A stretch of 64,000 bases of DNA from a virus: positions 64,001-128,000 of IMG/VR virus record IMGVR_UViG_3300033146_003848. The stretch is one strand, 5' to 3'. The translations under genes and the position numbers were made by a program. Shown here in pieces: positions 6,168 to 59,662 of this stretch (positions are counted from its first letter, which is position 1; every line of letters starts with the position of its first letter). A model generated the notes under the pieces. The model was not told the origin of the DNA. It worked only from the letters and a program-made list of their open reading frames with translations, and did not search any database.

Positions 6168-6266
6168 CAGGATTACATAGATACAATTTTAAGTTATATA
6201 AAAATTGACTTTTTCAAATAAAAACGCTATACTAAATATAGAAAATTGAGAATAAAGAGGAAAATA

Positions 6267-9138: not shown

Positions 9139-9146
9139 GGTATATA

Positions 9147-10133: not shown

Positions 10134-10778
10134 ATGTTAGTTGATACTATTTTGAATCGTGTTAGTGTAGTTGAGGTGTTGGATTTAATTGGAGAGTATT
10201 ATTATGATGGTGACTATGAGTACTCGAATCGACAAGGATTCTTGAAAACAATTCAAGAATTATGTCAAACAACATATTTGAAATCGAACGATGGGTTGAT
10301 ATTAACTATCAATCATTATGTGGATGAATATGATGGTGATGAATTCGAACAAGTGTCAGCAATAAAGAAAGATGAATCATTCTCATGGTCATTATCTTTA
10401 ACACCGTGGGCAGAATGGTTGGGATTAGAAGTGTCTAAGGAGACATTGAATAAATACACTGAAGGTGAAATTATGGCTCACATTCTTTGGGAAATGACAT
10501 TTTATGGATTTGATAGTAAGTCCGTTGAATCTCAAAGAGCAGAAATTTTTCAATTAAGTGAGGATGCGAAGAATGATCCGTCTAGTTACGTTTCAATGGA
10601 TGAATTATTTGCTGATTATGATATTGATTCGAATTTAACTTTGTCTGAATCGTTCGCAAAAGAGAGTGCTGACATCCTCGATGATAAAGATCGAACTATT
10701 GCTTTTTTCCAAAAAGCGGGGACACATAACAATGATGGAACATTAACTGAAAGAAATTCGTCAGGAGAAACCGAATGA
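10134..10778 (+). CDS. Conserved hypothetical protein (DUF6557-like)
   Basis: LTPWAEWLG...AHILWEMTFYGF recalled from that family; not verified. Confidence 0.45.
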   Translation: MLVDTILNRVSVVEVLDLIGEYYYDGDYEYSNRQGFLKTIQELCQTTYLKSNDGLILTINHYVDEYDGDEFEQVSAIKKDESFSWSLSLTPWAEWLGLEVSKETLNKYTEGEIMAHILWEMTFYGFDSKSVESQRAEIFQLSEDAKNDPSSYVSMDELFADYDIDSNLTLSESFAKESADILDDKDRTIAFFQKAGTHNNDGTLTERNSSGETE

Positions 10779-40961: not shown

Positions 40962-41582
40962 ATGGAAACTATACAAAAAATAAATTATAAGGATCATACG
41001 ATTGAAATTTCATATGATGATTATTTTGAAAGTCCAAGATGTTGGGATCAAAACTCAACAATGTTAATATTTCATCGAGAATATGATTTTGGTGATAAAA
41101 ATGAATTGGGTATTGATAAAAATGATTTTAATGATTGGGATGAAATGGAAGAATTCCTACAAAAGGAGATGAATATAGTAGTAATTTTACCAATTTACAT
41201 GATGGAACATAGTGGGATAAGTATTCAAACAACTCCATTTAGTTGCTCATGGGATTCAGGAAGAGTGGGATTTATATATATTACTCGGGATCAGATGAAG
41301 GATGCATATGGGTATAAACTATTAAATGCCAGACGAGAAAAAGAAATCATAAGATACTTAACCAACGAAGTCAAATTAATGAATAACTATGTCACAGGAG
41401 ATGTTTATGCATATTGTATTCGCAATGAGGACGACGAAGTACTCGATTCATGTTCAGGGTTTTATGGTGATGATTGTATTCCCGAAATAATAGATGAATG
41501 TAAACGAATCATTGATACTTATCCTTCTTCTCAACAAATGACTATTGCTGATTTTATACAGGAGAAAAAAGATGACCAATAA
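40962..41582 (+). CDS. Acidic conserved phage protein
   Basis: SPR.WD...LPIY..EHSGI.I...WDSG.VGFIY...DSCSGFYG. Confidence 0.6.
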   Translation: METIQKINYKDHTIEISYDDYFESPRCWDQNSTMLIFHREYDFGDKNELGIDKNDFNDWDEMEEFLQKEMNIVVILPIYMMEHSGISIQTTPFSCSWDSGRVGFIYITRDQMKDAYGYKLLNARREKEIIRYLTNEVKLMNNYVTGDVYAYCIRNEDDEVLDSCSGFYGDDCIPEIIDECKRIIDTYPSSQQMTIADFIQEKKDDQ

Positions 41583-42234
41583 AGAACTGATGGAACTGAT
41601 GGGAGTCTCAAGAGAGACCGTTAGATTCTGGATCACAAAGGGAATTCCACATGTGGGAGAAACTCCCACAACAATGACTTTCCCCGAAAAAGAATGTCAA
41701 CAATGGTTTATTGACAATAAAATAATAGGATACTTAAATGTGAAGGAGATAAAAGAAAAATATAACCTCTCACAAAAACAATTAACAGTTTGGCGAAATA
41801 ATGGATTGCCCGAAGAGTGGAGTCCAATTCGTAAAAAGAAGGCAATATATAACATTGTAAAATTAGAAACTTGGGTTGAAGAAACAAATGCCCTTTCTAT
41901 GTTTGATGAAGATCCTCGAATGAGCACTGCGGATATTTGTGAAATGTATAATGTAACTAGAGCGACAGTTTCTCTTTGGGTAAAAAATGGACTTCGAGGA
42001 GAAGATACTATTCATGGGTTTAGATTTGAACATAGTGAGGTTAGACGTTGGATAGAAAGTCACAAAAAATCCCAGAATAAATTAATTCTCATACAAGGTC
42101 AAGTATTCATTAGTAAACATAAAGATGTCGACCTTGTTGAACGATATTACTCCATAAGTGAATTGGGAAAAATACTATCTGAAAATAAAAATGATCCTAA
42201 AACCATTCAACATATTTCTAATATGTTAATTTGA
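41572..42234 (+). CDS. Triple winged-HTH (MerR/Nu1/Xis-like) DNA-binding protein, paralog 1
   Basis: Three repeats like KELMELMGVSRETVRFWITKGIP; AGGAG RBS. Confidence 0.75.
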   Translation: MTNKELMELMGVSRETVRFWITKGIPHVGETPTTMTFPEKECQQWFIDNKIIGYLNVKEIKEKYNLSQKQLTVWRNNGLPEEWSPIRKKKAIYNIVKLETWVEETNALSMFDEDPRMSTADICEMYNVTRATVSLWVKNGLRGEDTIHGFRFEHSEVRRWIESHKKSQNKLILIQGQVFISKHKDVDLVERYYSISELGKILSENKNDPKTIQHISNMLI

Positions 42235-43235
42235 CTTGGTCATTTTTATGTGTTATACTATATATATAAACAATTAATTTTGATTGTTTGTTTTTAATAA
42301 TTTTTTGAGTCAGAAAAGACTATAACATCGGAGACTATTATGAATTTACAAGTGAATGGTGAATTACATTTGAGAATTTCCAACATGGAAGGTGTAGAAA
42401 TTCAAAAAGATGAAGAAAAAATGGTTAGGTCGAAATTAAAGAGTGGAGATTATTTACTTAGCCTCAATAATAAATTTATTGTTGAATTAAAGAATTTTCA
42501 AACTCCAATATATACTTTTGATTTCGATGTCGATTCAATTACCGAATATGATTTCATTGAAGATGCGGAGGAAAATGATGAGTGATAAAAATACAAAAAA
42601 AGCCCTGTTGAAAGAACAATTGGACAAATTAATGAGCCAATTCTCAGATACAATTGATGAGAAGGTCAATCATGTGTTCGCATCGGGAACACTAGACGTG
42701 GACAATTTAGATGTCAGTGATGATAATTATACATTGGCTAAATTCTTCATGTGTGCATTAGGGAAAGAAATGTCGCACCAATATAAACATCCCAATTCTT
42801 CACGAAAACAAACCAAAACAATTGAGAGTATATATGGAGCAATGTGATGAAATATTTTGTAGCAATGTATTATGGCGAACGATATTTGACCACCATTAAG
42901 ACTATTAATGAGGAGAATTAAAATGAATATATTGCCAAAAACAATGTCGAGTAGTAACGAAGCCACAATGAGAATTAAAAAATTCCATCATCCCTTTATT
43001 CACGTCCAATTACATGAGGTAAAGGATAACAAAACAAATAAAAAGTATTCAATATTACAGTGGCAATATTGGACACATGGTGATAATATTAATGTGACTA
43101 GAGTCGCAATTAAGGATATCACTAGTGACGAGGCCATTTTACTTTGCGATGAATTGCCTGTTTTGACCGAGACCCTTCATGATGAAATTGCGGAGAAATT
43201 TACAATATTAAGTGTTCAATCATAGGAGAATTAAA

Positions 43236-43562
43236 ATGAGAAAAATAGTAACATGGGTTGACGATAATGGAAATTCTTGGTCAGACTGTACTGAGAGAGA
43301 GGCAATCAAGAAGTCTAAGACCCTTAGAAATTGCACTAATTGCAAAGATTGCACCTATTGTGTGAATTGCACAAATTGCACTAATTGTACTGAATGTGGG
43401 AATTTAGACGGTTGTGAACATTGTCACCAATGTGTGAATTGTAATAATTGTTTTCACTGTGATTATTGCACTGATTGCACCGACTGCAAAAATTGCACTA
43501 AATGTTTAGAGATTCGTGTTTCTAATGGTTCTAATTACGTTAACGTGAAACGAGGAGAATAA
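43236..43562 (+). CDS. Cys-rich (Cxx)n repeat protein, paralog 2
   Basis: WVDDNGNSWSDCTEREAIKKSKTLRNC followed by a long run of Cxx units. Confidence 0.8.
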   Translation: MRKIVTWVDDNGNSWSDCTEREAIKKSKTLRNCTNCKDCTYCVNCTNCTNCTECGNLDGCEHCHQCVNCNNCFHCDYCTDCTDCKNCTKCLEIRVSNGSNYVNVKRGE

Positions 43563-43933
43563 AATGATAGAAAAGAAAATTGCCCAATTTAGAGAAGAAT
43601 TGAAATTCGACACTAAAGGGTTAAAAATGTTTAATGATATCATCGAACACTCAAAGACCGATTCCAAATGTAATGCCTTATTTGAATTATACTTGACTTC
43701 ACCTGTTCATAAGACTTTAACCCTCTTTAAAATCCTCAGACTGACATTTCCAAATGAGGCAAAAGAAGACTCCTTGGAATTTACAAATAAATGGACATCA
43801 ATAGACTCCGCATCAAATGAAATTTCCATCAGAAATAATTGACATGGTCTAAAATAAATGTTATACTAGTATTATGATAGTATCAATAGTGACACTATCA
43901 ATTGATTATTAATTTAACACTATGGAGATCAAG

Positions 43934-44623
43934 ATGAATGGAAAGGAATTAATGCGAGGATATCATTGCACAAAGGCAACAGTCTTGATGTGGGTCTCAC
44001 ACGGTCTTCCACACGAAGGAGAAATATTCTCTAAAATGTCATTCGATGCCAATGAAGTAGAAAAATGGTTAATAGAGAATAAAGTCATGAATCATTGGAC
44101 AACCCAGGAATTAAAACAAAATTATAACCTCAAAAAAAGACAGTACGACGTTTGGAGAAGTCACGGACTCCCTGAACAAAAAAGTCCCCTGTTCCCAAAA
44201 AGTATGAGAGTATATAATATCCTCGAAGTAGAACAATGGGTGTTAGAGAATGATGCCCTAAATTTCCACGAATCAAAGTCGACAACCAACGATATATGTG
44301 CCCGATATAATATCACTAGAGCCGCAGTCTCACTATTCATCAAACAAGGACTCCCAAATGAAAAGACAATATATGGCCTCCGTTACGATATGAATGAAGT
44401 ACACAAATGGATGATTAAGAATAATAAAGTCAACGGGAAAAAGAATCGCAAAAAGAAAAGGCAATCAGAAACAAAAGAAGACCTCATCATCACACTAAAA
44501 GGCCTCAATAAGTGGAAAAGTGATTGGCAAAAAAGAGGTGTTGATGACTCCAATAAAATTCAATCGTTGAATAATTTAATTGAAGGTGTGAAAAAAGACT
44601 TAGAAAAATTCGATAAATGTTGA
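43934..44623 (+). CDS. Triple winged-HTH DNA-binding protein, paralog 2
   Basis: Collinear with 41572-42234 (W..GLP repeats, YNI..E.W, DIC..YN.TRA.VSL). Confidence 0.75.
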   Translation: MNGKELMRGYHCTKATVLMWVSHGLPHEGEIFSKMSFDANEVEKWLIENKVMNHWTTQELKQNYNLKKRQYDVWRSHGLPEQKSPLFPKSMRVYNILEVEQWVLENDALNFHESKSTTNDICARYNITRAAVSLFIKQGLPNEKTIYGLRYDMNEVHKWMIKNNKVNGKKNRKKKRQSETKEDLIITLKGLNKWKSDWQKRGVDDSNKIQSLNNLIEGVKKDLEKFDKC

Positions 44624-44715
44624 CTCGGTTGATATTATATGTTATAGTACTATTATAAAGTAAAAGTCAATAGTGACTTGTTAGAGTGATTAATTCATAC
44701 AAAGGAGAGACAACA

Positions 44716-45069
44716 ATGCAAAAAATTGTAACACAAAAAATGATATACTGGCAAGACGACAACGACAACAAGTGGTCAGACTGCACTGAAGAAGAAGCCA
44801 TTGAGAAGTCTAAGACCCTCAAAAATTGTACTAATTGTACCGACTGCGAACGATGTGAAGACTGCCATGATTGTGAGAATTGCACAGACTGCAGATGGTG
44901 TGTAGATAGTGCCAATGCGTCCTTTTGCGAAGACTGCACCGATTGCAACCATTGTTCAGGATGCGAATCTTGTATAAAGTGTAACAATTGCGAAGACTGC
45001 ATTGGTTGCGATGAATGTGAACAAAGTGAAGGTCTTGCGAATGAATATCAAAGTGTCGGAAAAGAATAA
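44716..45069 (+). CDS. Cys-rich (Cxx)n repeat protein, paralog 3
   Basis: YWQDDNDNKWSDCTEEEAIEKSKTLKNC followed by Cxx repeats. Confidence 0.8.
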   Translation: MQKIVTQKMIYWQDDNDNKWSDCTEEEAIEKSKTLKNCTNCTDCERCEDCHDCENCTDCRWCVDSANASFCEDCTDCNHCSGCESCIKCNNCEDCIGCDECEQSEGLANEYQSVGKE

Positions 45070-45256
45070 TGAAGAAACCAAAACAACGATGTCGAATGTT
45101 GAGTAGACAAAACCAAATAAATCCATATGCAACCCTTCAACGAAATGAAAGTGTGAGTAGTAAGTCACTCCCCCTCTATTATATCGTCAGCCCTCAAATG
45201 AAACCAATTAGTCGACGAAAACCCAACACCCCCGGTGTTAAACAAAGGAGAATATT

Positions 45257-45679
45257 ATGAACGCCCAAATAACCAATATAAAATTCTTCATACAAGGGAA
45301 TGCAATATTTACAGTATCAAACCCACAAAATGAACACTACACCTTTAAAGTGTCAAAAAAACCCAATGATGAAGACTCCCCACTATTCGTAGGATTATTA
45401 ACAGGACCCAATAATGAATATAATTACCAGTATATAGGAATACTAGACAAGTACCAATTAAAATTAACAAAAAAGTCCAATATAACACCATCATCAAAAG
45501 TCCTTAAAGTGTTCAATTGGACTTTAAAACAAGTGTACTTCAATAAAAGGCCTCCAAAAGGATACTCAATACAACATGTAGGTAAGTGTTGTAAGTGTGG
45601 AAGAACCCTAACAACACCAGAATCAATCGCCCTAGGAATAGGCCCTTCATGTAGAAAACAATCAAAGTCCTGGTCATAA
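45257..45679 (+). CDS. Protein with C-terminal DUF6011-like zinc finger
   Basis: CCKCGRTLTTPESIALGIGPSC. Confidence 0.7.
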   Translation: MNAQITNIKFFIQGNAIFTVSNPQNEHYTFKVSKKPNDEDSPLFVGLLTGPNNEYNYQYIGILDKYQLKLTKKSNITPSSKVLKVFNWTLKQVYFNKRPPKGYSIQHVGKCCKCGRTLTTPESIALGIGPSCRKQSKSWS

Positions 45680-45817
45680 AATTTACTGCATCCTATTCCC
45701 TCTTCATATTAGTCCATCCAAATAACCGCAACCCATCCAATGAAAATCACCATTTTTTGTCCGTCCAATGTCGAACCAATACGTGTGTTGTTGCGTGTAG
45801 ACAAATTAAACCGTCCG

Positions 45818-45876
45818 ACCATTACCAACCAATACCAACCAACCAATACCAACCAACCAATACCAACCAATACCAA
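45818..45876. repeat. ACCA/ATACCA short tandem repeat
   Basis: accattaccaaccaataccaaccaaccaataccaaccaaccaataccaaccaataccaa in non-coding DNA. Confidence 0.9.
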
Positions 45877-46406
45877 ATTATCCATTGTCGACTTATAAAA
45901 TATAGGGATCCTCAATTAATCATTTTCAATACTATTAATTGGTCCTCATTTTTTACCATAAGGACCTCCAATTTCTTATAATTTATAGGCGACTTTTGTT
46001 TGTTTTTTTGGTCTTCATCCTTTTTCCTTATATAAGGCGAATTACTTATATGGAATATTTGACAGGGTCATTTAATTATGATATACTATTAAAGTGAGTG
46101 AGACTTTTTGTTTTTTCAACACTCACCCTGGTTTCCCTTAACCGATAAAATTAAGGGACCCTGCGTACTTGTGATGATGGATCCTATTAGTGATTGCCTT
46201 GGGCGTGACGCGTTGAAGGTGACTTCGACTTTTAGGATCCTCACTTTAATGACAATTGTAAGGGCCAGTGCGAATAAAAATAAAAGTCATTTTATTTGAC
46301 TTGGTTGTTTTATTGTGTTATAATATGTATATAAACAATTGAAATTGATTGTTTGTGTTTTTAATACTTTTTTGAGTCAGAAAAGACTATAACATCGGAG
46401 ACTATT

Positions 46407-47057
46407 ATGAGTGAAGTAAAAAAAGAAATCGTTAATGGCAATGAGGCTCCAATTGTACACGGCATTGATTCATTAGAGGCTGAAATGAATGCGATGAACG
46501 GTATTCCTGTTGAGGTGTCTAAGAAGTCTATCAAATTAAAAGGGACTGCAAGGGTCGAGAGGCCTGTTCCTAGAGAGCCGAAGAAGAAATTGAAGATGGC
46601 TGCACATGCAAAATTTTTTAAGGCGAATGGTGGAAAGAAGAATGCGGATCAATTGAAAGTGAATTACAAAATGGTTGCAGAGTGGGTTCGTAGTATCATT
46701 GAAATTTACAACGTGAAGGATCACTTTGAAGTACATTGTAAGAGGAGTAAAAAGGACGTAAAGAACGTGGACTTCAATAAGGACGTTGCAGTGAGTAAAG
46801 AGAACCCTCGTACAGTGAAGAAAGAAGTGTATGCGGTTGTTTTTAATCGTAAAGAGGGTGATGAAGTGATTGAAGTACGCAAGGATCAATACAAGTCAGA
46901 AGAAATGTTGGTTAGGTCTCTCGCAAATATGGTGTACTTTGCGACTGCGAAAGTAAAAGAGTACGCGGCTGACCATAAAATTGAGCCACAATACGAGAAA
47001 AAAGTGGCTACTGAGGCTAAAACAGTGAAAGAGACTGTGTCCAACGAAAAGAAGTAA
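46407..47057 (+). CDS. Lys/Val/Glu-rich protein in a stand-alone transcription unit
   Basis: Promoter at 46296, conserved leader, GGAG RBS, terminator at 47075. Confidence 0.8.
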   Translation: MSEVKKEIVNGNEAPIVHGIDSLEAEMNAMNGIPVEVSKKSIKLKGTARVERPVPREPKKKLKMAAHAKFFKANGGKKNADQLKVNYKMVAEWVRSIIEIYNVKDHFEVHCKRSKKDVKNVDFNKDVAVSKENPRTVKKEVYAVVFNRKEGDEVIEVRKDQYKSEEMLVRSLANMVYFATAKVKEYAADHKIEPQYEKKVATEAKTVKETVSNEKK

Positions 47058-47074
47058 TCATTAGGACTATTATG

Positions 47075-47111
47075 AAGTGAGGACTTATTCAGTCCTCACT
47101 TTGGCTTTTTT
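47075..47111 (+). terminator. Rho-independent terminator
   Basis: aagtgaggact-tattc-agtcctcactt followed by T-rich sequence. Confidence 0.75.
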
Positions 47112-49482
47112 CGTATTGATTCCCTATTAGGACGGACTCCACTTAGGGAGGTAGGGTGTGGGACGAAGGCTCTCAATTAATATAGTGGAAATAGTGTATG
47201 CCCTTTTCATTAATGGGTATTAGTGGTTGACTTGTATGCAACGATAAAAAATTCTTAATAGTAAAGTGCAAGTGAAGTAATTTTTGTTCTTAAAGTCACA
47301 CTATCATATATTGTTGGTCATTATATTGATTCGCCGGTTCGTCTGTGTCGCGAAAGGGCACGTACTTAGTAGTATAGTATTGATGAATCCTGTGTTTTTA
47401 TGGGAACGAGTGCCGGTTTCCCTTAACCATCGAGGATCCTGGACTTATGGTCAATGGATATGCGTGTTTGCGAGGATTGGATCCATTTAGGACGGACTCC
47501 ACTTAGGACGGTCGAATTCGGGATAAAATTGGAAACCGGCACGGTTGAAATCATTAGAGAAAATCGTCACTAGGACTTGTTTATATTGGACTGATAGGAT
47601 TTGAGTGGACTTTTTCGTTTTCGCCTCGAGGTGATCCTATTTCTTGGGTTGGATGGTTGAATGGTTATGAGTACTTAGTGGTAACCGACTTTTTATTGAT
47701 TTGAGTCGGATTTGTATGGTGTTGCCGGTTGAAATCATTGACGGATTTCGTCACTACACAATTGGTTGGAATTTTCACTTTATTTGATGATTCCCATTCG
47801 TTCGAATTCGAAGTCTACGGCTTCGTTGAAGGATGACTTGTACAATTCATCAATTTGTTCTTGTAATATTGTCATTCTCAAGTGGGACCTTCCGATATCA
47901 CGGAGTTGCATGGTTCGTTCTTCATAGAACAATTCTTTTGTTTCGAAGTCTTCGGGTTGCATAATCCTTACTACTTCTGTGAGTACTTTTGCGGCCCTTT
48001 GGTTTCCGAAGTACTCTCTTTGGAGGTCTTCCATTTTTGTTTTGTCGTGGTGATTCATCATTTTACTTCCCTCATCATACTAAATTAATAATCAATTGAA
48101 AGTAACACTATTGATACTTTCATAATAATAGTATAACATATAATATCAACCGAGTCAACGTTATAATGAATTATTTTAAATTATTATTTTATTGACACGG
48201 TTGATATTATATGTTATTATTGACTCGTATTATTAATATTGATATTACAAACGATAACAACAAAAAGGAGACTTATTATGACTAATGCAGAAATTAAACA
48301 AGTACTTAATGAAAAAATGGAATTGATGGAACGCCACTACAAGAACAGACTTATTACCGAGGAAGTGTGGAAAGAAGTACTAATCATGGACAATTACTAT
48401 AAGAAAATTGTAAAGAATTACGCCTTCGCACTTCGTCAACGCCAAAAACAAATTGAAGAAACGTATGATCCTAGAAGTCGTAAGAAAAGTAATGAAATAT
48501 AGTAAATTATATAACGATTAATTCTAAAAGTCCACACTTAATTATCCCAGAAGTCAACGTCATATTTGGTATATTCATTTGACTATTAATTGTTTGATCG
48601 ATGGCTTCACTTAAGTCCTTTGTGTTTATGTTAATTGTTTTGTTTGATACCATCACTTTATCATTGACTTGGAAAGTCCTTTTGACTAATAGGCTAAATT
48701 GCATCCTTGATTCTCCCTGTTTCCTTGAATTGTAAGTACTTTTTAATATCATTGATGGTGATATGGTCAAGTATACCATAGGCATTCTTTGTATTCATTG
48801 TTCCGGACCCTTCAATTAACGTTGTTGTTGCCAACATTATTTGATTTAATTGGGTATCATTCATTTTATTTTGTTGCATAATTTCCTCCTTTTTAATATA
48901 TTAAGTGACCATTTTTAAGGCGATGAATAAATTCTTTCATTGCATTAGTGATGGTTTTTACTTCAATTTTTTCTGTCTCAGTCCATTCATCAGTAATATC
49001 CTTGATTAACAAGTCTACGTTTCCCTCTTCATCACTCAATTGGTGATAATATGCAAACAAGAATGACTTGGCATCATATGAGAATTTTGTGTCCCTTAAT
49101 TTCTTCAAGAAAGTCCTTTTAGTCGTTGTTGTTTTAAATAACATAATGACCTCCATTTTAAATTGTTCCCTTCACGTACTCAGTGAAGGAGAATGCAAAT
49201 ATTTCTGATTCATTGGCATCATCCAATGAATATACTTCTAGGCTTTCCAAGAAGTCAATCACTTCTTCTTCCCCATACTTTTCACCATACACTTCACAAA
49301 TGGAATCGGCAATACTTTCCAATTCATAAACCTCATTGACTTCCACACAGTGACAGTAATGTCCATTCCTTTCCTCAAGTACTTCTTCGAAAATCATATT
49401 CATTTTATTCTCCTTCAAATTGTTATTCTCATCATAATGCAAGGATCATTCCACTATTGAAATGACCCTTCGTTGTTGTACC

Positions 49483-49641
49483 CTAATTATACTTTCTGAC
49501 CATTTCTTCGATGATCATTTTAATCGTCCTTGTTTCCTCTTCAGACTCCTTTGTCTTGGTGATGATTGCAAAGTGGCTTAATTTATCATACTCGTCTAAT
49601 GAGTATGCGACTTTGTGGTTTTGAATCGTTGTTGTTAACAT
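49483..49641 (-). CDS. Small protein (52 aa; not in the ORF track)
   Basis: MLTTTIQNHKVAYS..., GGAGG RBS, promoter at 49736. Confidence 0.6.
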   Translation of the reverse strand: MLTTTIQNHKVAYSLDEYDKLSHFAIITKTKESEEETRTIKMIIEEMVRKYN

Positions 49642-49966
49642 GATAGCCTCCGTTTTAAGTAATCAATAATCAATTGATAGTAACACTATTGTTACTATCA
49701 TAATACTAGTATAACATATAATATCAACCAAGTCAATTACTTTTGTTGATATACTCTAAAAAATTAATTGACACTTGCCCATATTGAATGTCGCAGACTC
49801 CGTCTCCTATTAACGCCTCTCTGTGATACTTGTCGACTACTTCACCATCATGCCTCACTATTTGGTTAATAAATTCATTTTCTGCGGCATCCCTATCGTG
49901 AAAGTCAAACACGAATTGGTCATTCACTTGATTTTTATACGTTACGGTTACAACAATTACTTTCAT

Positions 49967-50062
49967 CATAAGTCTCCTTTCTTCTAAATTAATAATCAAT
50001 TGAAAGTAACACTATTGATACTTTCATAATACTAGTATAACATATAATATTAGCCAAGTCAA
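49967..50062 (-). repeat. ~95 bp promoter-hairpin-RBS module, identical to 50400-50495
   Basis: TTGACTTGG...TGTTATACT, ATAG-loop hairpin, AGGAG, ATG. Confidence 0.93.
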
Positions 50063-50399
50063 TTAATTTATGTTTGAAGTAAAAAAATTCAAATAAGTGT
50101 TACTTTTCTTTGATTGTTTTTGATTGTCTGGGACTTGATTTTTGAGTAATATTGAAGTACTTTACTTTATGTTATTGATACTTTTCGAAAATAGGAAGTG
50201 AGACTTCATTACCGTGTATTACACTATCATCATAATTCAAGGAGTCCGAATACACTTTGTTATTAATAAGGGCCATTCTTCGTCGTCGGTTCTTTTCCAT
50301 ATTAATGATGAAATTATTTCCCCTCACTTTCCATTCATCATTGGTTAACCTCATTTGATTCACCAATATCATCAAGTCTTTTCTTTTAGGCATTACCAT

Positions 50400-50495
50400 C
50401 ATAAGTCTCCTTTCTTCTAAATTAATAATCAATTGAAAGTAACACTATTGATACTTTCATAATACTAGTATAACATATAATATTAGCCAAGTCAA
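50400..50495 (-). repeat. Second copy of the ~95 bp module
   Basis: Identical by eye; drives an unrelated ORF. Confidence 0.93.
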
Positions 50496-50579
50496 CGTTA
50501 TATGAAAGTATTTTTTGATGATCGGTTAGGTACCTAACCAATGGAGAGGGCCCAAGTAGGACGGTTGAAAGTCACCTCA

Positions 50580-50611
50580 GAAACCGGCACTCTGTGACGA
50601 GTGCCGGTTTC
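50580..50611. other. Perfect 13 bp GC-rich inverted repeat
   Basis: gaaaccggcactc-tgtgac-gagtgccggtttc; the arms recur at 47410 and 47531. Confidence 0.85.
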
Positions 50612-50893
50612 CCTATCCCGTTATATACTCAATTCCATGGCTCTCACAATGACACTTTTGACTAGAGTCGTTCGCCTCATATATGTCATCACCACTCACT
50701 TCTACTGAGTCAGTGGACTTATAATAGTATATGTAATTAGCCTTCATTGTCGCACTCTCCCAATTCCACTTATTAATAATGGTCAGGAAGTCTTCTACTT
50801 TAAAACACCACACTTTTTGTTCTAACCCTCGATTATAGTAAGTGAATTCCCTATAATTACATAAGTACATTGCATCTGCCTTTGATATTAACA

Positions 50894-51286
50894 TTAGTGT
50901 CTCCCATGTCGTCTGTTATCAAGCCTCATTTGTTCCGTTTTTAATATTACTTTATTCATTAACCATACAGGAATTGTTAGTATTCCACCCAATATCACGT
51001 TGAAGGTTGACGTAAACAAAAACAAATTGAACCAAGGAATTTCAAAGAAAGGAGTATGATAGTGTGTTCCAACAATTAAAACGCCAAAGTATGCCGCAGA
51101 AAACGTTCCTGAAATAATATAGGGCAATGGTCCTGCAATAAGTATTATTATCATTGCCCAAAGTCCCATATATATATTCCAATCGTCTAATGGAATACCA
51201 CTAAATGCACCTGTTGATAAGTACACGTATGGTCCCAAAATTATTAATATTGCAATTAGTCGCCATTTGATAAAGTCCCACATCAC
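50894..51286 (-). CDS. Multi-pass membrane protein
   Basis: About four hydrophobic segments. Confidence 0.65.
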   Translation of the reverse strand: MMWDFIKWRLIAILIILGPYVYLSTGAFSGIPLDDWNIYMGLWAMIIILIAGPLPYIISGTFSAAYFGVLIVGTHYHTPFFEIPWFNLFLFTSTFNVILGGILTIPVWLMNKVILKTEQMRLDNRRHGRH

Positions 51287-51887
51287 TTTCTCCGTTTTCT
51301 AATTGGAGGTCGTTTTTTGAATAAGTCTAGTAAAGTCTTTTTGCGTGGCCTATTTCTCATAATATTCTCCTTTTATGTAAGTCGTCCTTATTGAATTTAA
51401 TAATTCTACCTCCGACTTTCTGATGTCGGTAGTGAATTTCTTCATTAAGGAGAACCAAGTCTTCCATAGTGTGATTTTTTGCCTGTAATACTTTTTCGAT
51501 TGCCTCGTGCAAGTCGTCTGTATTGACTTGCACTATTTCACAGGTTTCCAATAAGTCGTATTGTTTTTTAATTTCCAATTCAATCATAATATTCCCATGC
51601 CTTTTAATTCACACTTGATTTTCGCAGGTACTTCAGAGAGTGATACTTTGGTTTCCATCACTTTCCAATAAGTGCAACGACCATACTCATACATTTCTCT
51701 CATAGTCTCGTCTGCCTCTTCTTGATTGTTGTAATAGCCGATTCCAATGATTCCAATTAAGGCGATAAGTAATACTTTCTTCATAATAGTCTCCGATTTT
51801 AAAGTCTTCTCTGACTTAAAAATTAATAAAACAAACAATCAATATCGATTGTTTATATATATAGTATAACATATAAAAGTAGCCAAG

Positions 51888-52241
51888 TCAATTAATTATT
51901 GAGAATTGTGATGATGGTGTCGCATTATCAATACCATTCTCATTCAAACAATTTGAACAATCAGAACACTCTTGGCAATTATCACAATTTAAACACCATT
52001 GACAATACGAAAGGCTCGTGCAATCGGTACAGTCATATGAATATGATACATTTTTACAATTGATGAGCCTTGTCGAGTAATAACAATGGTGACTTCTTGT
52101 GCAGTCAGTGCAATTGGTGCAATCAGTACAATTGTCTAATGAAGAAGACTTCTTAATTGCCTCTTCTTCAGTGCAGTCTGACCATTTGTTGTTGTTCTCG
52201 TCTTGCCAATATTCCACGTGGTTCAATATTACTTTTTTCAT
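51888..52241 (-). CDS. Cys-rich repeat protein, paralog 4
   Basis: YWQDENNNKWSDCTEEEAIKKSSSLDNC; AGGAG RBS before ATG 52241. Confidence 0.8.
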   Translation of the reverse strand: MKKVILNHVEYWQDENNNKWSDCTEEEAIKKSSSLDNCTDCTNCTDCTRSHHCYYSTRLINCKNVSYSYDCTDCTSLSYCQWCLNCDNCQECSDCSNCLNENGIDNATPSSQFSIIN

Positions 52242-53087
52242 TTTATTCTCCTTTTGTTGTTCGTACTTCATACTTCCCATTTGATGAGAAGTGATTGGCA
52301 ATACTTTCCACCACTTCGTCTTCTGTGTTACCAATTGCCCAAGAGTCTAAGTCCTTCACGTATGCCCAATATTCACCGTCTCTAAAAACAGTATCGACAC
52401 TGAATCTTTCAAACACATACTTCGCATTTTTCACAAGGACTTCAAAATTAATTCTCATAATAGTCTCCGATTTTAAAGTCTTTACTGACTTAACAATTAA
52501 TAAAACAAACAATCAATATCGATTGTTTATAATACTACTATAACATTTAAATGAAACCATGTCAAGACTTTTTAATATCATTTTATCATTATTTTACCCT
52601 CATTGAAACCATTGCAATTTCATTTCAAGTCAATATGGAACCTTGTATCAATAAACAAGTGAGGACTTCAGTAATAATGAAATGAATTGAACCGGTGTTG
52701 ATTCTGAGTCAAAATGATATCACTAATACTTTACTATTCAAAAATTGTTTTCGTTGCAAATATCATAAAAGGATCACTTGAAAATGAAATAGGATGAAAT
52801 GAATTGAAAGTGAAACAAAATGAAGTAGGGTTAATTAAAGTGAGACTGAAGTGGAGGGAATTTGTATTTGATACTGATTGACTTCGGTTGGTAATATTTC
52901 AATTGCAACCTCGTTAGGGTTTAACCGTCCCGATTGATATGATACCTCAATATTGAATTTAATTAGGTGGAATCCAAGTATGAACCCTAAATGAGGATGG
53001 TTACCAAAAAGGACGGTACAGTGTAAATTGAAAATAAACCCTTAATTTTTTTAAGTGTCCATCGTTGATATTATTATTACTACTTCC

Positions 53088-53360
53088 TTAAATTGTTTCT
53101 AAGTCAAATTTAAGTGAAGTAGTGTTTTTTATATATTCATAAAATTTATACGACCCTGTTGATAGTAGAGACGATATTAATGATGATGATATTTCAATAT
53201 TACTTGTATCAATTAAAAACATGAATAATTGATACTCTTCTGTCTCGGTCAAATCAGTATCAGACTGAGCCAAAATCATGAGGGTTTGGGTAAGTGTGGA
53301 ATTGATAAAAAGTGATCTGAAGTCTTTTTCTGATACTTTACAATCGTTTATAATAATCAT
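53088..53360 (-). CDS. Cassette gene, paralog of 55184-55585
   Basis: EY.LF..LID and SYKFYEY.K....LKFD..TI shared. Confidence 0.75.
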   Translation of the reverse strand: MIIINDCKVSEKDFRSLFINSTLTQTLMILAQSDTDLTETEEYQLFMFLIDTSNIEISSSLISSLLSTGSYKFYEYIKNTTSLKFDLETI

Positions 53361-53663
53361 TTTCTTTTCCTGTTTTTAAAGTCTCTACTGACTAAAAAAT
53401 TAATAAGAACACAAACAATTAATATCAATTGTTTATAATACTAGTATAACACTTAAATGAGACCTTGTCAATTCCATTTCAAATTAATTTTATAAAAAAA
53501 AAGAAATATACTTACTTCAAATAGTCTCATATTCAATCGAGATCAAACGATATGGAAAAATGAATAGTAAAGTATATACTTGAAATAAAAAATGATTATT
53601 ATCAAAACACAATAGGTCTCAATGTTATTTTATTCAATCAATACCTTCCCTAATTTATATCGT

Positions 53664-53870
53664 CCATTTAGGACGGTTCCCAACCATAATAGGTCGTCAC
53701 TAAAGTAAAATTGAACCTCGATGAGAATTAATGATTCCCAAATAGGACGGTACAGAGACATTGACCTCGATAGGTCGTCACTAAAGTAAAATTGAACCTC
53801 GATGAGAATTAATGATTCCCAAATAGGACGGTACAGAGACGATTCGACCTCGATAGGGAATAGTATTATA
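53664..53870. repeat. Repeat block of the same family (two ~81 bp units)
   Basis: ataggtcgtcactaaagtaaaattgaacctcgatgagaattaatgattcccaaataggacggtacagagac occurs twice. Confidence 0.9.
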
Positions 53871-53875
53871 TAAAA

Positions 53876-53904
53876 AAAAGTAGTTGCTATTCGCAACTAC
53901 TTTT
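53876..53904 (-). terminator. Cassette terminator (potentially bidirectional)
   Basis: aaaagtagttgc-tattc-gcaactactttt; identical at 55137, 56342 and 57433. Confidence 0.88.
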
Positions 53905-53914
53905 TATCAAATAT

Positions 53915-54373
53915 CTAACGCTTCACAAGTTCTGCAATATTTTCTAGTTTTGAAAAATGTGACATCTCATCAAAATGTATATTCAATAGTGAGTTTGTGA
54001 TTAATAAAGCAATCTCTAAAGCATTTTGTTCCAGATCATCAAAATGATTTAGAATAAAATTTAAATCATCAAAACTTTCATATTCCAATGCTAGTTTTAA
54101 TTCTTGAATTCGAAATTTAAAATCTCTTTTTCCCAGTTCCTCTGCTTCGTCGGCAATTCCCGCAACATCAATTATATGAAAAAGAAATATTGCTTTTTCT
54201 TCAATTGAATATTCATGTTTTCTTGAGTCAATAAAAGCAAGCGTAAAATCAAAATCTTTTGTATACTCATCTATAGCATACAGTCTCTCTAATTCAGTAT
54301 CAAATTGTTTTTCAAAAGCAATGTGAAACAATTCATGATCAATTTCTTTTCCGAACACATTAATTTTTTTCAT
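53915..54373 (-). CDS. Acidic cassette gene, paralog of 57483-57953
   Basis: N.F...I...LFH..F...D, LFH..D..GI, LA.EY shared; start set by the conserved leader. Confidence 0.75.
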   Translation of the reverse strand: MKKINVFGKEIDHELFHIAFEKQFDTELERLYAIDEYTKDFDFTLAFIDSRKHEYSIEEKAIFLFHIIDVAGIADEAEELGKRDFKFRIQELKLALEYESFDDLNFILNHFDDLEQNALEIALLITNSLLNIHFDEMSHFSKLENIAELVKR

Positions 54374-54960
54374 GATAATTTTCCTGTTTTTAAAGTCTGT
54401 ACTGACTAAAAAGTTTAAAAACACAAACAAGCAATATCGATTGTTTATAAGTAACTATAACATAAAATAATTCCCGTGTCAATTCTATTTCAAATTATTT
54501 TAAATTAAAATTATTTTAAAGTAAAAATATTTTAAAAATAATAAAATGATATAATAATAAACAAAATAAACTTACTTCAAATAGTTCCATATTCAATCGA
54601 GATCAAACGATATGGAAAAATGAATAGTAAACTATATACTTAAAAAAAATCAATTATCATAACGAAAAAATAAAATAAAATTTGTCAATTTTATTCATTA
54701 AAATTAAAAAAAATAATTATAAATAATTATAAAATCACAATAGGCTTCTATATTATTTTATTAGATCGATACCTTCCCTAAATTTATAATTGAATTAAAA
54801 AAATGATTCATTTTGTTTCAATAATTATTTAAATCAATTCACTAAAGGGAATTTCCATCTTGCATTCGACCGTCCTATTCGGGAATTATATGTTCATATA
54901 GGTTTAAATCCATTTAGGACGGTTCCCAACCACGATAGGTCGTCATTTAAGTAAAATTGA

Positions 54961-55115
54961 ACCTCGATGAGAATTAATGATTCCCAAATAGGACGGTACA
55001 GAGACATTGACCTCGATGAGAAATAATGATTCCCAAATAGGACGGTACAGAGACATTGACCTCGATGAGAAATAATGATTCCCAAATAGGACGGTACAGA
55101 GACATTGACCTCGAT
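54961..55115. repeat. 3 x 49 bp tandem repeat
   Basis: acctcgatgagaa(t/a)taatgattcccaaataggacggtacagagacattg starting at 54961, 55010 and 55059. Confidence 0.95.
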
Positions 55116-55136
55116 AGGGAATAATATTATATAAAA

Positions 55137-55165
55137 AAAAGTAGTTGCTATTCGCAACTACTTTT
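55137..55165 (-). terminator. Cassette terminator copy
   Basis: Identical hairpin downstream of the gene. Confidence 0.88.
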
Positions 55166-55183
55166 ATCAAATATCTTTCAAAT

Positions 55184-55585
55184 TTATGAAAATTGCAAGA
55201 TTTCTTCTTTTGTTAAATCACTATTATTTAACATTTCAACTAAAATATTTTTATTTAATGTTTTTTTATCAAAATGAATTTGAATAGTTTTTTTATCAAA
55301 TTTCAAACAACTAATTTTTTTCATATACTCATAAAATTTATATGAAGTTTGTAGTAAATTCGCTAGAAGTTCCATTGCAATTTTTTTATTTTCAATATCA
55401 ATATTAGTATCATTATTAAGTTCCTCAAACGCTCTTTTATGCATATCAATTAATGATTTAAATAAATCATACTCTTGATCTTCATTTAATCTAGTTTTTG
55501 ATTTTGCTAAAAAAAGTACACTATCACTTAAAGTTGCATCAAAAATTTGTTCAAATTCATACGATGTTAATTTAATTTTTTTCAT
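55184..55585 (-). CDS. Cassette gene, paralog of 53088-53360
   Basis: Starts after the leader caggaaaattatcATG. Confidence 0.75.
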   Translation of the reverse strand: MKKIKLTSYEFEQIFDATLSDSVLFLAKSKTRLNEDQEYDLFKSLIDMHKRAFEELNNDTNIDIENKKIAMELLANLLQTSYKFYEYMKKISCLKFDKKTIQIHFDKKTLNKNILVEMLNNSDLTKEEILQFS

Positions 55586-56140
55586 GATAATTTTCCTGTT
55601 TTTAAAGTCTGTACTGACAAAATTAATAAAAAAACAAACAATCAATATCGATTGTTTATAAGTAACTATAACACATAAATTTTCCCGTGTCAATTCTATT
55701 TTAAATTAATTTAAATTAAAACTATTTTAATTCTATTCTATTATATTATATTATATTCTATTTTAAAACAATTAAAATGGAAATTGTTTTACTTTCATTT
55801 TAATGATACTTCAAATAGTTCCATATTCAATCGAGATCAAACGATATTCAAAAACTAATAGTAAAGGAAAGACTTGAAAAAATCAATTGACATAACGAAA
55901 AAATAAAATAAAATTTGTCAATTTTATTCCTTAAAATTAAAAAAAAATAACTATAAAATAATTTTAAAATCACAATAGGCTTCTATATTATTTTATTAGA
56001 TCGATACCTTCCCTAATTTAAACTCACTTAAAAAATGATTCATCTTGTTTCAATAAGTATCAACATAAATCAGTCGAGGGAATTTCCATCTTGCATTCGA
56101 CCGTCCTATTCGGGAATTATATGTTCATATAGGTTTGACT

Positions 56141-56335
56141 CCATCTAGGACGGCTCCCAACCACGATAGGTCGTCACTAAAGTAAAATCAAACCGTGATG
56201 ATAAATATAATTCCCAAATAGGACGGTTCCCAACCACGATAGGTCGTCACTAAAGTAAAATCAAACCATGATGATAAATATAATTCCCAAATAGGACGGT
56301 ACAGAGACATTGACCTCGATAGGGAATAGTATTAT
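56141..56335. repeat. Repeat block of the same family (two ~73 bp units)
   Basis: taggacgg.tcccaaccacgataggtcgtcactaaagtaaaatcaaacc.tgatgataaatataattcccaaa occurs twice. Confidence 0.9.
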
Positions 56336-56341
56336 ATAAAA

Positions 56342-56370
56342 AAAAGTAGTTGCTATTCGCAACTACTTTT
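56342..56370 (-). terminator. Cassette terminator copy
   Basis: Identical hairpin. Confidence 0.88.
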
Positions 56371-56386
56371 TGTCAAAATCTTGAAA

Positions 56387-56725
56387 TTAAAAATCAAAAT
56401 TCTCTTTGATTATAAGTTTAAATTCGTCAATGTTTCTATCATCATCATATGAAAATTGAAACTTTACTTTTGTAAGATCAAAATCATCATCATTAACTAT
56501 TATTTCATATGATTCTACTTTCAAAGAATCTAAAGTTATCATATGAAAATTTTTGAGACACTGAAAATAAATAAAATTTCTGATAATTTCTGAATTTAGA
56601 TCAATTTCAGAAATTATCATTTCCTCAATATCATTTTTATGATAATCTCTGCAAGCGTTATTTTCTGATAACGCGAATTGGGAAATGAAATTGAAATACA
56701 TTGTAACAGTTGTTGATTTTTTCAT
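56387..56725 (-). CDS. Acidic cassette gene
   Basis: Same leader; MKKSTT start shared with 57953. Confidence 0.7.
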   Translation of the reverse strand: MKKSTTVTMYFNFISQFALSENNACRDYHKNDIEEMIISEIDLNSEIIRNFIYFQCLKNFHMITLDSLKVESYEIIVNDDDFDLTKVKFQFSYDDDRNIDEFKLIIKENFDF

Positions 56726-57432
56726 GATAATTTTCCTGTTTTTAAAGTCTCTACTGACTAAAAAGTTTAAAAAAAACAAACAATCAATATCGATTGTTTA
56801 TAAGTAACTATAACACATAAATTTTCCCGTGTCAATTCTATTTTAAATTAATTTAAATTAAAACTGTTTTAATTCTATTTTATTTTATTCCATTTTAAAA
56901 CAATTAAAATGGAAACTGTTTTACTTTCATTTTAATGATACTTAAATAGTTCCATATTCAATCGAGATCAAACGATATAGAAAAATGAATAGTAAACTAT
57001 ATACTTAAAAAAATCAATTATCATAACAAAAAAATAAAAATAAAATTGTCAATTTTATTTTAATATTTGATATTTAAAATCAAAAAAATCTATTATATAT
57101 ACTATCGGGAATATATATATATTCAAAAAAAAAATCAAAAATTAAGTGAGATAAAATCAAAAAAAATCAAAACAAAAATACTTCTAAGTTTTCAAAAACA
57201 ATGTAGACATATCGGGAATTTCTTTGCGAAATGATACCCGCCCTCATTTCAATTAATGAAAATCAACCCTATCCTATTTCAAAAAAATATGAAACAAAAT
57301 CGGGAAGGTACCTGCCCTATAATATCTAAATACTCCCGAATAGGACGGTACAAAGTGAAAGTGAAAGAGAAAGCCAGATTTTCATTTTGAAGTCAATTCC
57401 GTTGTCAAAAAATTGACACTAGGAATACGATA

Positions 57433-57461
57433 AAAAGTAGTTGCTATTCGCAACTACTTTT
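57433..57461 (-). terminator. Cassette terminator copy
   Basis: Identical hairpin. Confidence 0.88.
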
Positions 57462-57482
57462 TGTCAAAATCTTGGAATTATA

Positions 57483-57953
<471 letters not shown>

Positions 57954-58039
57954 GATAATTTTCCTGTTTTTAAAGTCTATACTGACTATTAGTTTTAAAA
58001 AGAAACTGTTTTAAACTATTTTAAAACAGTTTAAAAAAC

Positions 58040-58069
58040 AACTTGCAAGACTTTGAAGTCTTGCAAGTT
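58040..58069 (-). terminator. Long hairpin after 58080-58799
   Basis: aacttgcaagactt-tg-aagtcttgcaagtt; T-rich downstream on the minus strand. Confidence 0.65.
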
Positions 58070-58079
58070 TCAAGTAATT

Positions 58080-58799
58080 CTATAGTTGCACTATAGAATT
58101 ACTTCGATTAAGCAAGATCATTATGTCGTTTACTCTTGATGTTGCATTTTTTCCTTTTCTTATCTTAGTGTATAAGACATTTTTAAGAGTTCGGAACGCA
58201 AAAGAATTTGCATTATTTTTCTGATTTTTAGCAAAGTTATGAATTATAACAATACTATTTTTCGATAAATTTGCAACTGAAAAAATTCCAGATTCAGAAA
58301 GTGTAAATTTCAGATTCATATTGTTTGTTTTTATAATGTCTTGACTTTCTGCTAAAATTTCACTTTTCATAACTGAAGCAATAAGTATAGTACTTGCATA
58401 AACATAATTTAAGCACTTTTCTTTATAATTCAATAAATTTGCAGTTTTTTCGACTTTAAACTTTTTTCCATTTTGCATCGTGATAACTAATTTTCCAGTG
58501 ATAAAATCTGAATTATTTTTTATATCATGTTTTGTGCAAAATTTTTCCGACATAAAGTACTTTTCAAAATTCTTTACTGCATACAGTGACTTGAAACTTA
58601 AATTTTCTAAAAGTTTATATCGTTTTGTAGAATTCAAATTATCAAAAAATTGAGAAACTTTTTTCTTTTCAAGTTCAACTTCTTTGATTTTTTCGTCATT
58701 TTTTTTTTCAGTTTCTAAATTTGCAAGATAACTTGTTCTTTCTTTATCTGACAAATTAAGATTAAAATTGTTGTTTGATTTTTCTGTTAAATTTTTCAT
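58080..58799 (-). CDS. Basic Lys/Asn-rich protein, first gene of the leftward array
   Basis: 239 aa; promoter at 58936 and a variant leader. Confidence 0.7.
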   Translation of the reverse strand: MKNLTEKSNNNFNLNLSDKERTSYLANLETEKKNDEKIKEVELEKKKVSQFFDNLNSTKRYKLLENLSFKSLYAVKNFEKYFMSEKFCTKHDIKNNSDFITGKLVITMQNGKKFKVEKTANLLNYKEKCLNYVYASTILIASVMKSEILAESQDIIKTNNMNLKFTLSESGIFSVANLSKNSIVIIHNFAKNQKNNANSFAFRTLKNVLYTKIRKGKNATSRVNDIMILLNRSNSIVQL

Positions 58800-59477
58800 A
58801 AAATTTTCCTAATTTTTAAGTCTTATTTTGACTAAAATGTTTAAAAAAAACTGTATAACGATATTGTTATACAGTCAAGTAATTAAAAGAGCGTTGTTTC
58901 TTATAAAATAATAGCATATAATTTCCATTTAGTCAATTATTTTTTGCAATTTTTTTAAACTGTTTTGTAAGTAATTAAAATTACTACAAAATAAAATCAC
59001 TTTTATTTTTAATAAAATCAATTAAAAATAAATAAAAATGTCTTTTTTTAAAAAAAAACTAAATTTTAAATTTTAAAATAGAGAAAAAAATACTCTTTTT
59101 ATTTTTCTCACGACTAGAACTTGCAATATGAAACTATTGCTATTCGCAAGTATTCTGAAAAATTAAAAAATCTATTTCTGAAAAAAATCAATAAATAAAT
59201 TTTTCTGTAAAATTGCAACGCAAGCAAGTCAAATTTTAATTTTCTGAAAAAAGTAATATAAAACTATTAAAAAATGAAAAAGTTTCTTAAAATCAAATTT
59301 TGTTCGTTTTTGGAAAAGACAAAAAAAGACAAAAAAATTCATTTTTTCAAAAATTAAAACATCTTGTTTTTTTTCAAATTTCTTGAATTGTTTCAAAATT
59401 GATACAAAACTGTATTTTTTCGCTTTTTATATATAGACGAACTATTGACTTAATTTTTTTGAACGGTTACCAGGCGA

Positions 59478-59662
59478 CTGATGGATCTCATCCAGGATCC
59501 AGGGAATATTTTGGCTGATGGATCTCATCCAGGATCCAGGGAATATTTTGGCTGATGGATCTCATCCAGGATCCAGGGAATATTTTAACTGATGGATCTC
59601 ATCCAGGATCCAGGGAATATTTTAACTGATGGATCTCATCCAGGATCCAGGGAATATTTTGG
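59478..59662. repeat. 5 x 37 bp tandem repeat
   Basis: ctgatggatctcatccaggatccagggaatatttt(gg/aa) at 59478, 59515, 59552, 59589 and 59626. Confidence 0.97.

Follow-up and report, generated by a model that had tools for sequence, protein, structure and literature searches.

Position-tied loss of AGCT-neighbor words from coding and non-coding DNA of an early-type gene zone in an uncultured T4-related phage

Results

The stretch of DNA analyzed here (the window, 64,000 nucleotides) corresponds to bases 64,001–128,000 of a linear 146,140 bp IMG/VR virus record, a metagenomic piece that CheckV scored as 65% complete; coordinates below are window positions. Between 42.0 and 53.9 kb lies a zone in which four tetranucleotides, AACT/AGTT, AGAT/ATCT, AGCA/TGCT, and AGCG/CGCT (each counted with its reverse complement; the avoided words), are almost missing. 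The last cassette gene of the zone encodes 90 amino acids (53,088–53,360, minus strand). Next to it, a sigma-70-type promoter (TTGACA-17-TATACT with TG) and a conserved leader occupy 53,361–53,471 on the minus strand and contain no avoided word; the three nearest paralogs of this leader, at 54.4, 55.6, and 56.7 kb, contain one to three. Then follow an AT-rich non-coding scaffold of 189 bp (53,472–53,660), a TAGGACGG tandem-repeat block between scaffold and hairpin (53,660–53,874, plus strand; no avoided word), and the terminator hairpin of the next cassette (53,875–53,905, minus strand), which recurs in identical copies at 55.14, 56.35, and 57.44 kb.

Within the zone, plus-strand genes at 42.3–47.06 kb and minus-strand genes at 47.78–53.4 kb converge. 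We counted ∼25 small genes, with open reading frames of 52–233 amino acids that are mostly orphans, and several lie behind consensus sigma-70-type promoters of the TTGAC-N17-TATAAT type, as judged from sequence only. Non-coding DNA is rich in repeats at 45.7–47.8 kb and at 53.4–53.9 kb. In the zone center (45,680–47,779), where the early gene arms converge, two GC-richer non-coding islands flank gene 46,407–47,057, and this center is a candidate special site, such as an origin, an end, or a pac site. The composition of the zone is shifted as well: its GC content is 33%–37%, and C-ending codons are 2- to 3-fold more frequent, also at positions where the choice is not forced by any word.

The zone proteins include three-fold helix-turn-helix (HTH) proteins, three Cys-rich paralogs, a DUF6011 protein, and many orphans. 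The Cys-rich paralogs (43,236–43,562, 44,716–45,069, and 51,888–52,280, all in the zone) carry C-x-x-C / NCTxC repeats and belong to PHROG 15341. The paralogous HTH-repeat proteins are encoded at 41,545–42,234, straddling the left edge, and at 43,922–44,623, in the zone; a Pfam match to HTH_17 (excisionase or small-terminase-like) was found in the former only, and the pair could be early DNA-binding regulators. Homologs of the DUF6011 gene (45,257–45,679) and of gene 40,941–41,582, just left of the zone, were found in phiCbK-like Caulobacter phages, where they lie within the annotated terminal repeats, and in several other large phages, at most a few kb from the record ends, which is circumstantial support for an early or terminal module.

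The family-B polymerase of the contig is ∼32% identical to gp43 of T4-type cyanophages, and the replication genes are T4-like; the helicase, RtcB, and RNA ligase also match phage families. The polymerase is split here into open reading frames of 652 and 305 amino acids, and it is unsplit (899–912 amino acids) in its nearest relatives. These relatives are 55%–57% identical and are known from contigs of 14–19 kb that end short of any early region. Nothing closer was found: megablast of 42–58.9 kb returned no nucleotide-level relative among GenBank phages, IMG/VR held no close relative when queried with a protein, a 22-mer repeat, and the polymerase, the protein of gene 46,407–47,057 matched only itself among 5.8 billion proteins, and a flank protein had a best match of at most 47% identity. 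The Protein Atlas gave no usable match for the two largest orphan proteins. On this 65%-complete record we found no terminase, gp23, or gp32; the contig also contained no C5 methylase, no N6/N4 methylase, and no TGT-type base-exchange gene, and no nuclease or known anti-restriction gene was recognized on it, including among the zone and cassette proteins.

Two sediment runs contain small parts of the sequence as short Logan contigs, some of them 100% identical to zone sequence in both of these independent runs, and no RNA run was listed as containing it. Among the short contigs we saw no bridging pieces, termini, or depth steps. One Logan variant piece differs at 16 positions and creates no avoided word, an outcome with P = 0.10 by chance alone; another variant, partly listed, would add one intergenic AACT.

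We scanned the record for improbably long gaps between occurrences of all 2- to 4-mers, without preference for any word, and strong k-mer deserts were confined to one place in the 146 kb. Two AACT/AGTT gaps (5.4 and 6.0 kb), an AGCA/TGCT gap (11.0 kb), and an AGAT/ATCT gap (4.3 kb) all fell within window 42.5–53.9 kb. With expectations for 43.0–53.88 kb taken from the word frequency outside, this interval contained no AGCA/TGCT (68 expected), no AGCG/CGCT (18–36 expected), one AACT/AGTT (142 expected), and 12 AGAT/ATCT (154 expected), and beyond the zone the same words had observed-to-expected ratios of 0.99–1.39. The surviving AGAT/ATCT words concentrate near both flanks (seven in the left, one in the middle, and four in the right part of the zone), and the purge may be strongest around the non-coding islands at 45.7–47.8 kb.

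Genes and non-coding DNA were both cleared over these ∼11–12 kb. The zone non-coding DNA (3,967 bp in 16 segments) held one avoided word, compared with 129 in shuffles or 141 at the outside density. In the 23 zone genes we observed 12 avoided words; recoding the same proteins yielded 203 with outside codon usage and 157 with the zone's own codon usage, so the avoidance is a context-dependent choice at codon junctions rather than a general codon preference. The amino-acid composition of the zone proteins was nearly unchanged. A conserved promoter/leader element that is present 11 times followed the same pattern, with no avoided word in its five zone copies and one to six in each of its six outside copies. 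Both strands were equally cleared, and the two orientations of each word were missing in both gene arms, which indicates a constraint at the level of double-stranded DNA rather than of a transcript. An RNA-level cause, such as sites for an mRNA endonuclease, was rejected on this symmetry and on the clearing of untranscribed DNA. Together, these observations establish selection on short double-stranded DNA words that is tied to position and independent of coding.

The avoided words are related to a palindrome that is missing from the entire record. AGCT was absent from all 146 kb (0 versus 192–353 expected), as was GCGC (0 versus 33–64 expected), on both sides of the zone edges. Each purged word is one base from AGCT: written on one strand, AGAT, AGTT, AGCA, and AGCG correspond to AGHT/ADCT plus AGCD/HGCT and make up four of the six strand-merged one-substitution neighbors of this palindrome. 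A purged site combines a perfect AG half-site with a second one in which A or T, though not C, stands in place of G, or T or C, though not G, in place of A. The other two neighbors, AGCC/GGCT and ACCT/AGGT, occurred at normal density, and neighbors of GCGC were not purged. Among the 120 asymmetric word classes, the four most depleted were all AGCT neighbors, for which a random-draw calculation gave a probability of ∼2e-6. This link suggests a single AGCT-type enzyme whose recognition is relaxed, or a few related enzymes.

We also examined the replication modules of two relatives (55%–57% polymerase identity), in which AGCT was found 3 times versus 28 expected and 0 times versus 10, with the neighbor words at normal density. 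One of these relatives, L009, avoids further palindromes (CTAG, 0 versus 13; ACGT, 0 versus 7; GATC, 9 versus 39), and the other, L010, has 12 GATC versus 45. In the record itself, CGCG, CATG, and GATC were depleted in the zone and in the rest alike. GGCC followed a different course by second-order expectation, being 5-fold under-represented outside the zone (9 versus 46) and present at 11 versus 17 within it. The zone words, asymmetric and locally depleted, do not fit the short palindromes of classical Type II avoidance, which are depleted genome-wide.

The left border of the zone is nested by word. AACT/AGTT is nearly absent from 41,968–53,881 (2 versus ∼148 expected), a span whose left edge lies inside gene 41,545–42,234; AGCA/TGCT/AGCG/CGCT is absent from 42,862–53,884 (0 versus ∼90 expected); and AGAT/ATCT is almost absent from 44,968–53,912 (5 versus ∼117 expected). 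The last AACT/AGTT before the zone lies at 41,967 and the last AGCD at 42,861. In the intervening 41,968–42,861, we counted one AACT/AGTT versus 11.1 (p = 2e-4) and nine AGAT versus 11.8. At 42.9–45.0 kb, AGAT/ATCT was depleted 4-fold (7 versus 28), and from 44,968 onward at least 25-fold. This graded border runs through coding DNA, first within an intact gene, and no repeat is found there.

The right border, by comparison with the left, is a single hard edge common to all words, at the hairpin foot (53,881). Words resume inside the hairpin stem at 53,882, which makes the hairpin the hard right edge, and from this position all word classes are back at full density. The cassette array that begins here (53,880–59,460) follows a rule of its own: outside GGAA/TTCC and the TAGGACGG blocks, GG/CC is scarce, with 0–29 per kb-bin versus 40–65 elsewhere. 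Two adjacent word regimes switch at one hairpin, and paralogous cassette genes obey opposite rules on either side of it. The zone gene 53,088–53,360 contains one avoided word and nine GG/CC, and its paralog 55,184–55,585 (47% amino-acid identity) contains 14 and two; this pair had been named in the initial annotation as lying across the boundary. For the other pair named there, the HTH-repeat genes from 41,572 and 43,934, the word counts across the left border agreed with the claim (15 versus 0), but at 42% amino-acid and 56% nucleotide identity the genes are too diverged for a test at the level of single substitutions.

Two further features lie in or next to the cassette array. Gene 57,483–57,953 (minus strand) starts with ten Thr codons, seen as TGT repeats on the plus strand at 57,905–57,950, and this tract may be prone to slippage. 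Five tandem units of ∼38 nt containing GGATCTCATCCAGGATCC occupy 59,470–59,660, in a 1.1-kb non-coding gap that separates the minus-strand cassette block from the next plus-strand genes; the units are iteron-like and may represent an origin or a packaging site.

The non-coding scaffold within the zone was the basis of the initial annotation, which had aligned it with copies outside and had read the comparison as an internal control. BLAST of 53,472–53,660 against the whole record confirmed homologs only at 54,550–54,663 plus 54,723–54,788, 55,807–55,882 plus 55,949–56,020, and 56,939–57,031 (81%–87% identity), that is, at 54.55–54.79, 55.81–56.02, and 56.94–57.03 kb. The corresponding outside copies span 54,545–54,790 (with AACT twice, AGTT once, and AGAT twice), 55,780–56,020, and 56,925–57,075, the third being homologous in its first part only. 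We then aligned with MAFFT the four whole intergenic frames, that is, the zone frame at 53,361–53,877 and its paralogous frames at 54.4, 55.6, and 56.7 kb, each composed of promoter, leader, scaffold, TAGGACGG repeat block, and terminator hairpin.

All of the word-removing substitutions that had been proposed were present in this alignment. In the zone copy, AACT (54,569) is TACT (53,509), AGTT (54,583) is AGTC (53,523), AACT (54,630) is AAGT (53,570), and AGAT (54,763) is CAAT (53,635); an additional AACT is lost in the −10 region, where GTAACTATAAC is replaced by ACTAGTATAAC. The replacements are heterogeneous (A>T, T>C, C>G, and AG>CA), which argues for selection rather than directed mutation, and the latter was rejected as a cause because replacements of four different kinds leave no mutational signature. 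The scaffold retains one avoided word, the AGAT at 53,540 that had also been noted at the outset. It lies in a 26-nt core (53,528–53,553) that is invariant in all four scaffold copies and carries the only avoided word in the non-coding DNA of the zone; some function of this core probably outweighs the purge there.

The zone copy is not simply more diverged than the others, since the zone, 54-kb, and 55-kb copies are equidistant (84.5%, 83.5%, and 85.3% identity) and have similar numbers of private substitutions (40, 31, and 36, respectively). Three of the four words common to two outside copies are destroyed in the zone copy, with losses assigned by parsimony among four copies related in a star-like manner. 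Private substitutions of the zone copy were enriched in word columns (5 of the 40 in 16 word columns versus 35 in 412 other columns; odds ratio 4.9, one-sided p = 0.011), although loss-only enrichment with other outgroup pairs gave p = 0.07 and 0.27. The outside copies lose one or two of four to five words, which is not significant. When the zone copy's number of substitutions was applied at random to the 54-kb copy, a mean of 11.6 words resulted, compared with the one observed (P ∼5e-5 for loss and no gain combined). This value is low because new words arise by random substitution at the rate at which old ones are lost, and none arose in the zone copy.

With few ancestral words, the scaffold alone is a modest and weak control. 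Moreover, the outside scaffold copies sit in a second constrained zone and are not neutral, because they lie inside the adjacent cassette array with its own scarcity of GG/CC. The outside copies of the TAGGACGG repeat block, too, contain almost no avoided words. The broader proposal, a position-dependent purge of non-coding DNA that is distinct from codon bias, is supported mainly by the zone-wide evidence described above.

The scaffold is not a known RNA, as no tRNA or Rfam family was found in 40–64 kb. Its core region carries a conserved, weak promoter-like site, TGGAAA-16-TATACT, on the plus strand at 53,553–53,580 and at 54,613–54,640. The site faces the TAGGACGG repeats and the bidirectional hairpin, and the repeat block might be transcribed from it as a small RNA.

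The edges also bear on the origin of the zone. A chimeric assembly, in which two phages were joined at the cassette repeats, or motif-directed mutation would make the zone an artefact, which we regard as exceedingly improbable. A right edge at a repeat that occurs four times would suit a chimera, and in the Logan contigs of one sediment run the cassette frames are joined in many alternative ways; however, the left edge is graded and lies inside an intact open reading frame without a repeat, neither AGCT nor GCGC occurs on either side of the supposed joint, the lost words were replaced in four ways, and the identical short contigs come from two independent runs.

A mosaic origin, in which the block arrived by homologous recombination from a related phage and inherited its word-free state, the donor's whole genome or its early region having evolved under different nuclease pressure, is a more substantial alternative that we nevertheless consider unlikely. 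T4-type phages shuffle early cassettes flanked by promoter and stem-loop motifs, and the hard right edge coincides with a repeated hairpin, a natural crossover point. The shift in GC content and C-ending codons covers the same span as the zone, GGCC avoidance is relaxed inside the zone only, and the adjacent cassette array follows a third rule. Set against import are the left edges, which are nested by word, the first one within an intact gene devoid of repeats, as well as the absence of AGCT and GCGC on both sides and the failure to find a donor among GenBank phages, IMG/VR, and 5.8 billion proteins. Paralogs span both borders (on the left, the HTH gene and a 34,366-type leader; on the right, the cassette frame), which indicates that the zone content is native to this genome family. 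We argue that these border-crossing paralogs and the nested edge within a gene favor a positional cause over import. Furthermore, because random change makes ∼0.1 words per substitution, a zone so nearly free of words must either have arisen very recently or continue to be selected in place, and this too speaks against simple inheritance. Purging in situ and import of an orthologous block that was already purged cannot be formally separated.

Discussion

We favor the explanation that the zone reflects selection against cleavage by an AGCT-type nuclease of relaxed specificity, acting on an early segment that would be exposed first, and we rate its chances as about even. The agent would be a nuclease, of host or phage, that cleaves double-stranded DNA, is specific for AGCT, and has relaxed (star-type) recognition, or else a few related enzymes, and the zone words would be near-cognate AGCT variants with a perfect AG half-site and a half-site with one tolerated mismatch. 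Such a nuclease would meet the zone segment while the DNA is still unprotected; the segment would be first-exposed early ("host-takeover") DNA, comparable to the first-step-transfer (FST) DNA of T5 and the leading region of Murciavirus, and the remaining genome would be at risk from canonical AGCT only. We infer both the nuclease as the agent and the first exposure of the segment. Nuclease cleavage fits best because only a hazard that is lethal at one site explains a near-total removal. We count in favor the paralog controls, the identity of the words as AGCT neighbors, the nested left and common right edge, the consensus promoters, and the orphan genes; the avoidance of AGCT in relatives, a contig without methylase or TGT gene, and homologs in terminal repeats or near record ends point the same way.

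Several observations count against this explanation. The polymerase is T4 gp43-like, and a T4-like replication module implies possible headful packaging; in its classical T4-type form, such packaging provides no fixed leading end (PMC12455610). GGCC is avoided outside the zone only, which a model of "the same selection plus more" does not predict. The cassette array next door is full of avoided words even though it also lies behind early promoters. Finally, no nuclease or known anti-restriction gene was identified, and the contig reads through both edges. To our knowledge, no enzyme recognizes an asymmetric 4-bp word of the AACT or AGAT kind, and a relevance of star cleavage in vivo is hypothetical.

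Avoidance of a DNA-binding protein would be another way to remove words from double-stranded DNA. The words would then be core motifs of a host silencer, a nucleoid protein, or a roadblock that shuts down the genes transcribed first, and we judge this very improbable. The depletion is strand-symmetric and limited to a gene block driven by host-type promoters, and silencers with short motif preferences exist, such as Rok with AACTA/TACTA. Yet removal is near-total (1 word left of ∼140 and 0 of ∼90), which suggests lethality at single sites and not cooperative binding; TACT is abundant in the zone, promoters included; the neighboring early cassettes keep the words; and the relation to AGCT, forbidden genome-wide, would be left unexplained.

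The hazard might also come from the phage itself. A sloppy, AGCT-like early phage nuclease could destroy host DNA while only this segment is inside the cell, as A1 does in T5, so that even weak sites would have to be missing from the segment, and only AGCT from the remaining genome. We assign this self-immunity a low probability. AGCT avoidance is common to the relatives (55%–57% polymerase identity) and would be a lineage trait, although a common host clade explains it equally well. The contig has no methylase, and the way in which unmodified T5 DNA evades its own A1 nuclease is openly described as unexplained (bioRxiv 10.64898/2026.04.02.716235). On the other hand, no nuclease was recognized among the zone or cassette proteins, and entry in two steps would be required. 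If the enzyme were the phage's host-DNA shredder, the zone would answer, for this lineage, how first-step DNA of the T5 kind survives its own nuclease.

Returning to an AGCT-type nuclease as the agent, a narrower proposal is that the purged words are the in vivo star-site shell of a single enzyme, for which the canonical site would be lethal anywhere and one-mismatch sites only in the DNA exposed longest. We hold this tentatively, as possible but doubtful. If it is true, the left extents measured from the common edge (11.9 kb for AACT, 11.0 kb for AGCD, and 8.9 kb for AGAT) would rank the off-target preferences of the enzyme and would serve as a ruler of the DNA length exposed before protection.

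Among known systems, the zone looks like an extreme form of a phage trick in which first-exposed DNA is kept free of nuclease sites. Restriction-modification acts as a filter at a sub-genomic scale, and in Murciavirus (Autographiviridae) a Type I motif is avoided in the leading region, motifs being relevant only in the part injected first (PMC12455610). In Murciavirus the motif is a single bipartite Type I motif and the T7-like entry is known from experiments; here the words are 4 bp long, with more than 30 expected sites per kb. Classical Type II palindrome avoidance is seen as well, in that the 146 kb contain neither AGCT nor GCGC and are depleted of GGCC, CGCG, CATG, and GATC. Unlike in such avoidance, the zone words are non-palindromic, affect 8% of the contig, and surround one forbidden palindrome as a one-mismatch shell.

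Surveys that look for avoided restriction sites generally evaluate entire genomes and consider canonical sites, most of them palindromic. Our analysis suggests that they would miss selection limited to a small early segment, and that they would likewise miss one-mismatch neighbors, even where ∼390 expected words are gone from 11 kb at no visible cost in protein sequence. If the nuclease reading is true, off-target cleavage by a restriction-type enzyme would be a real selective force in nature, and word deserts would map first-exposed DNA and enzyme specificity from sequence alone, even in uncultured phages. The principle would then apply even to T4-related phages, for which one does not expect a fixed leading end.

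In the terminal-redundancy host-takeover module of the Bacillus phage SPO1 and in T4-type early cassettes, small orphan early genes are numerous, and every one has its own terminator together with a strong promoter and a strong ribosome-binding site. The zone shares the small orphan early genes, and its repeated cassette frames could support shuffling. We know of no word purge described for the SPO1 module or for T4-type early cassettes.

The closest parallel is the 10.2-kb terminal-repeat FST DNA of T5. Like the zone, it comprises ∼10–12 kb with small genes, strong host-type promoters, and repeat-rich non-coding DNA, and nuclease sites are missing in the segment and present elsewhere; T5 FST lacks EcoRI sites, a documented case of this principle (PMC12455610). 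The zone has two such traits, a depletion of nuclease-type words in a segment with normal density elsewhere and, from its sequence, small genes behind promoters for the host RNA polymerase. It differs from T5 in lacking A1/A2 homologs (no matching PHROG or Pfam family), in the T4 gp43-like polymerase, and in gene arms that converge here and diverge in T5. The confinement of the zone is also far stronger than in T5 FST or the Murciavirus leading region. In T5 FST (1–10,219) we counted no EcoRI site versus three in the next 40 kb, and no tetranucleotide was fully purged: relative to the next 40 kb, the strongest depletions were those of AGAG/CTCT (19 versus 78) and GAACC/GGTTC (1 versus 23), whereas four asymmetric tetranucleotides have been removed almost completely from the zone described here.
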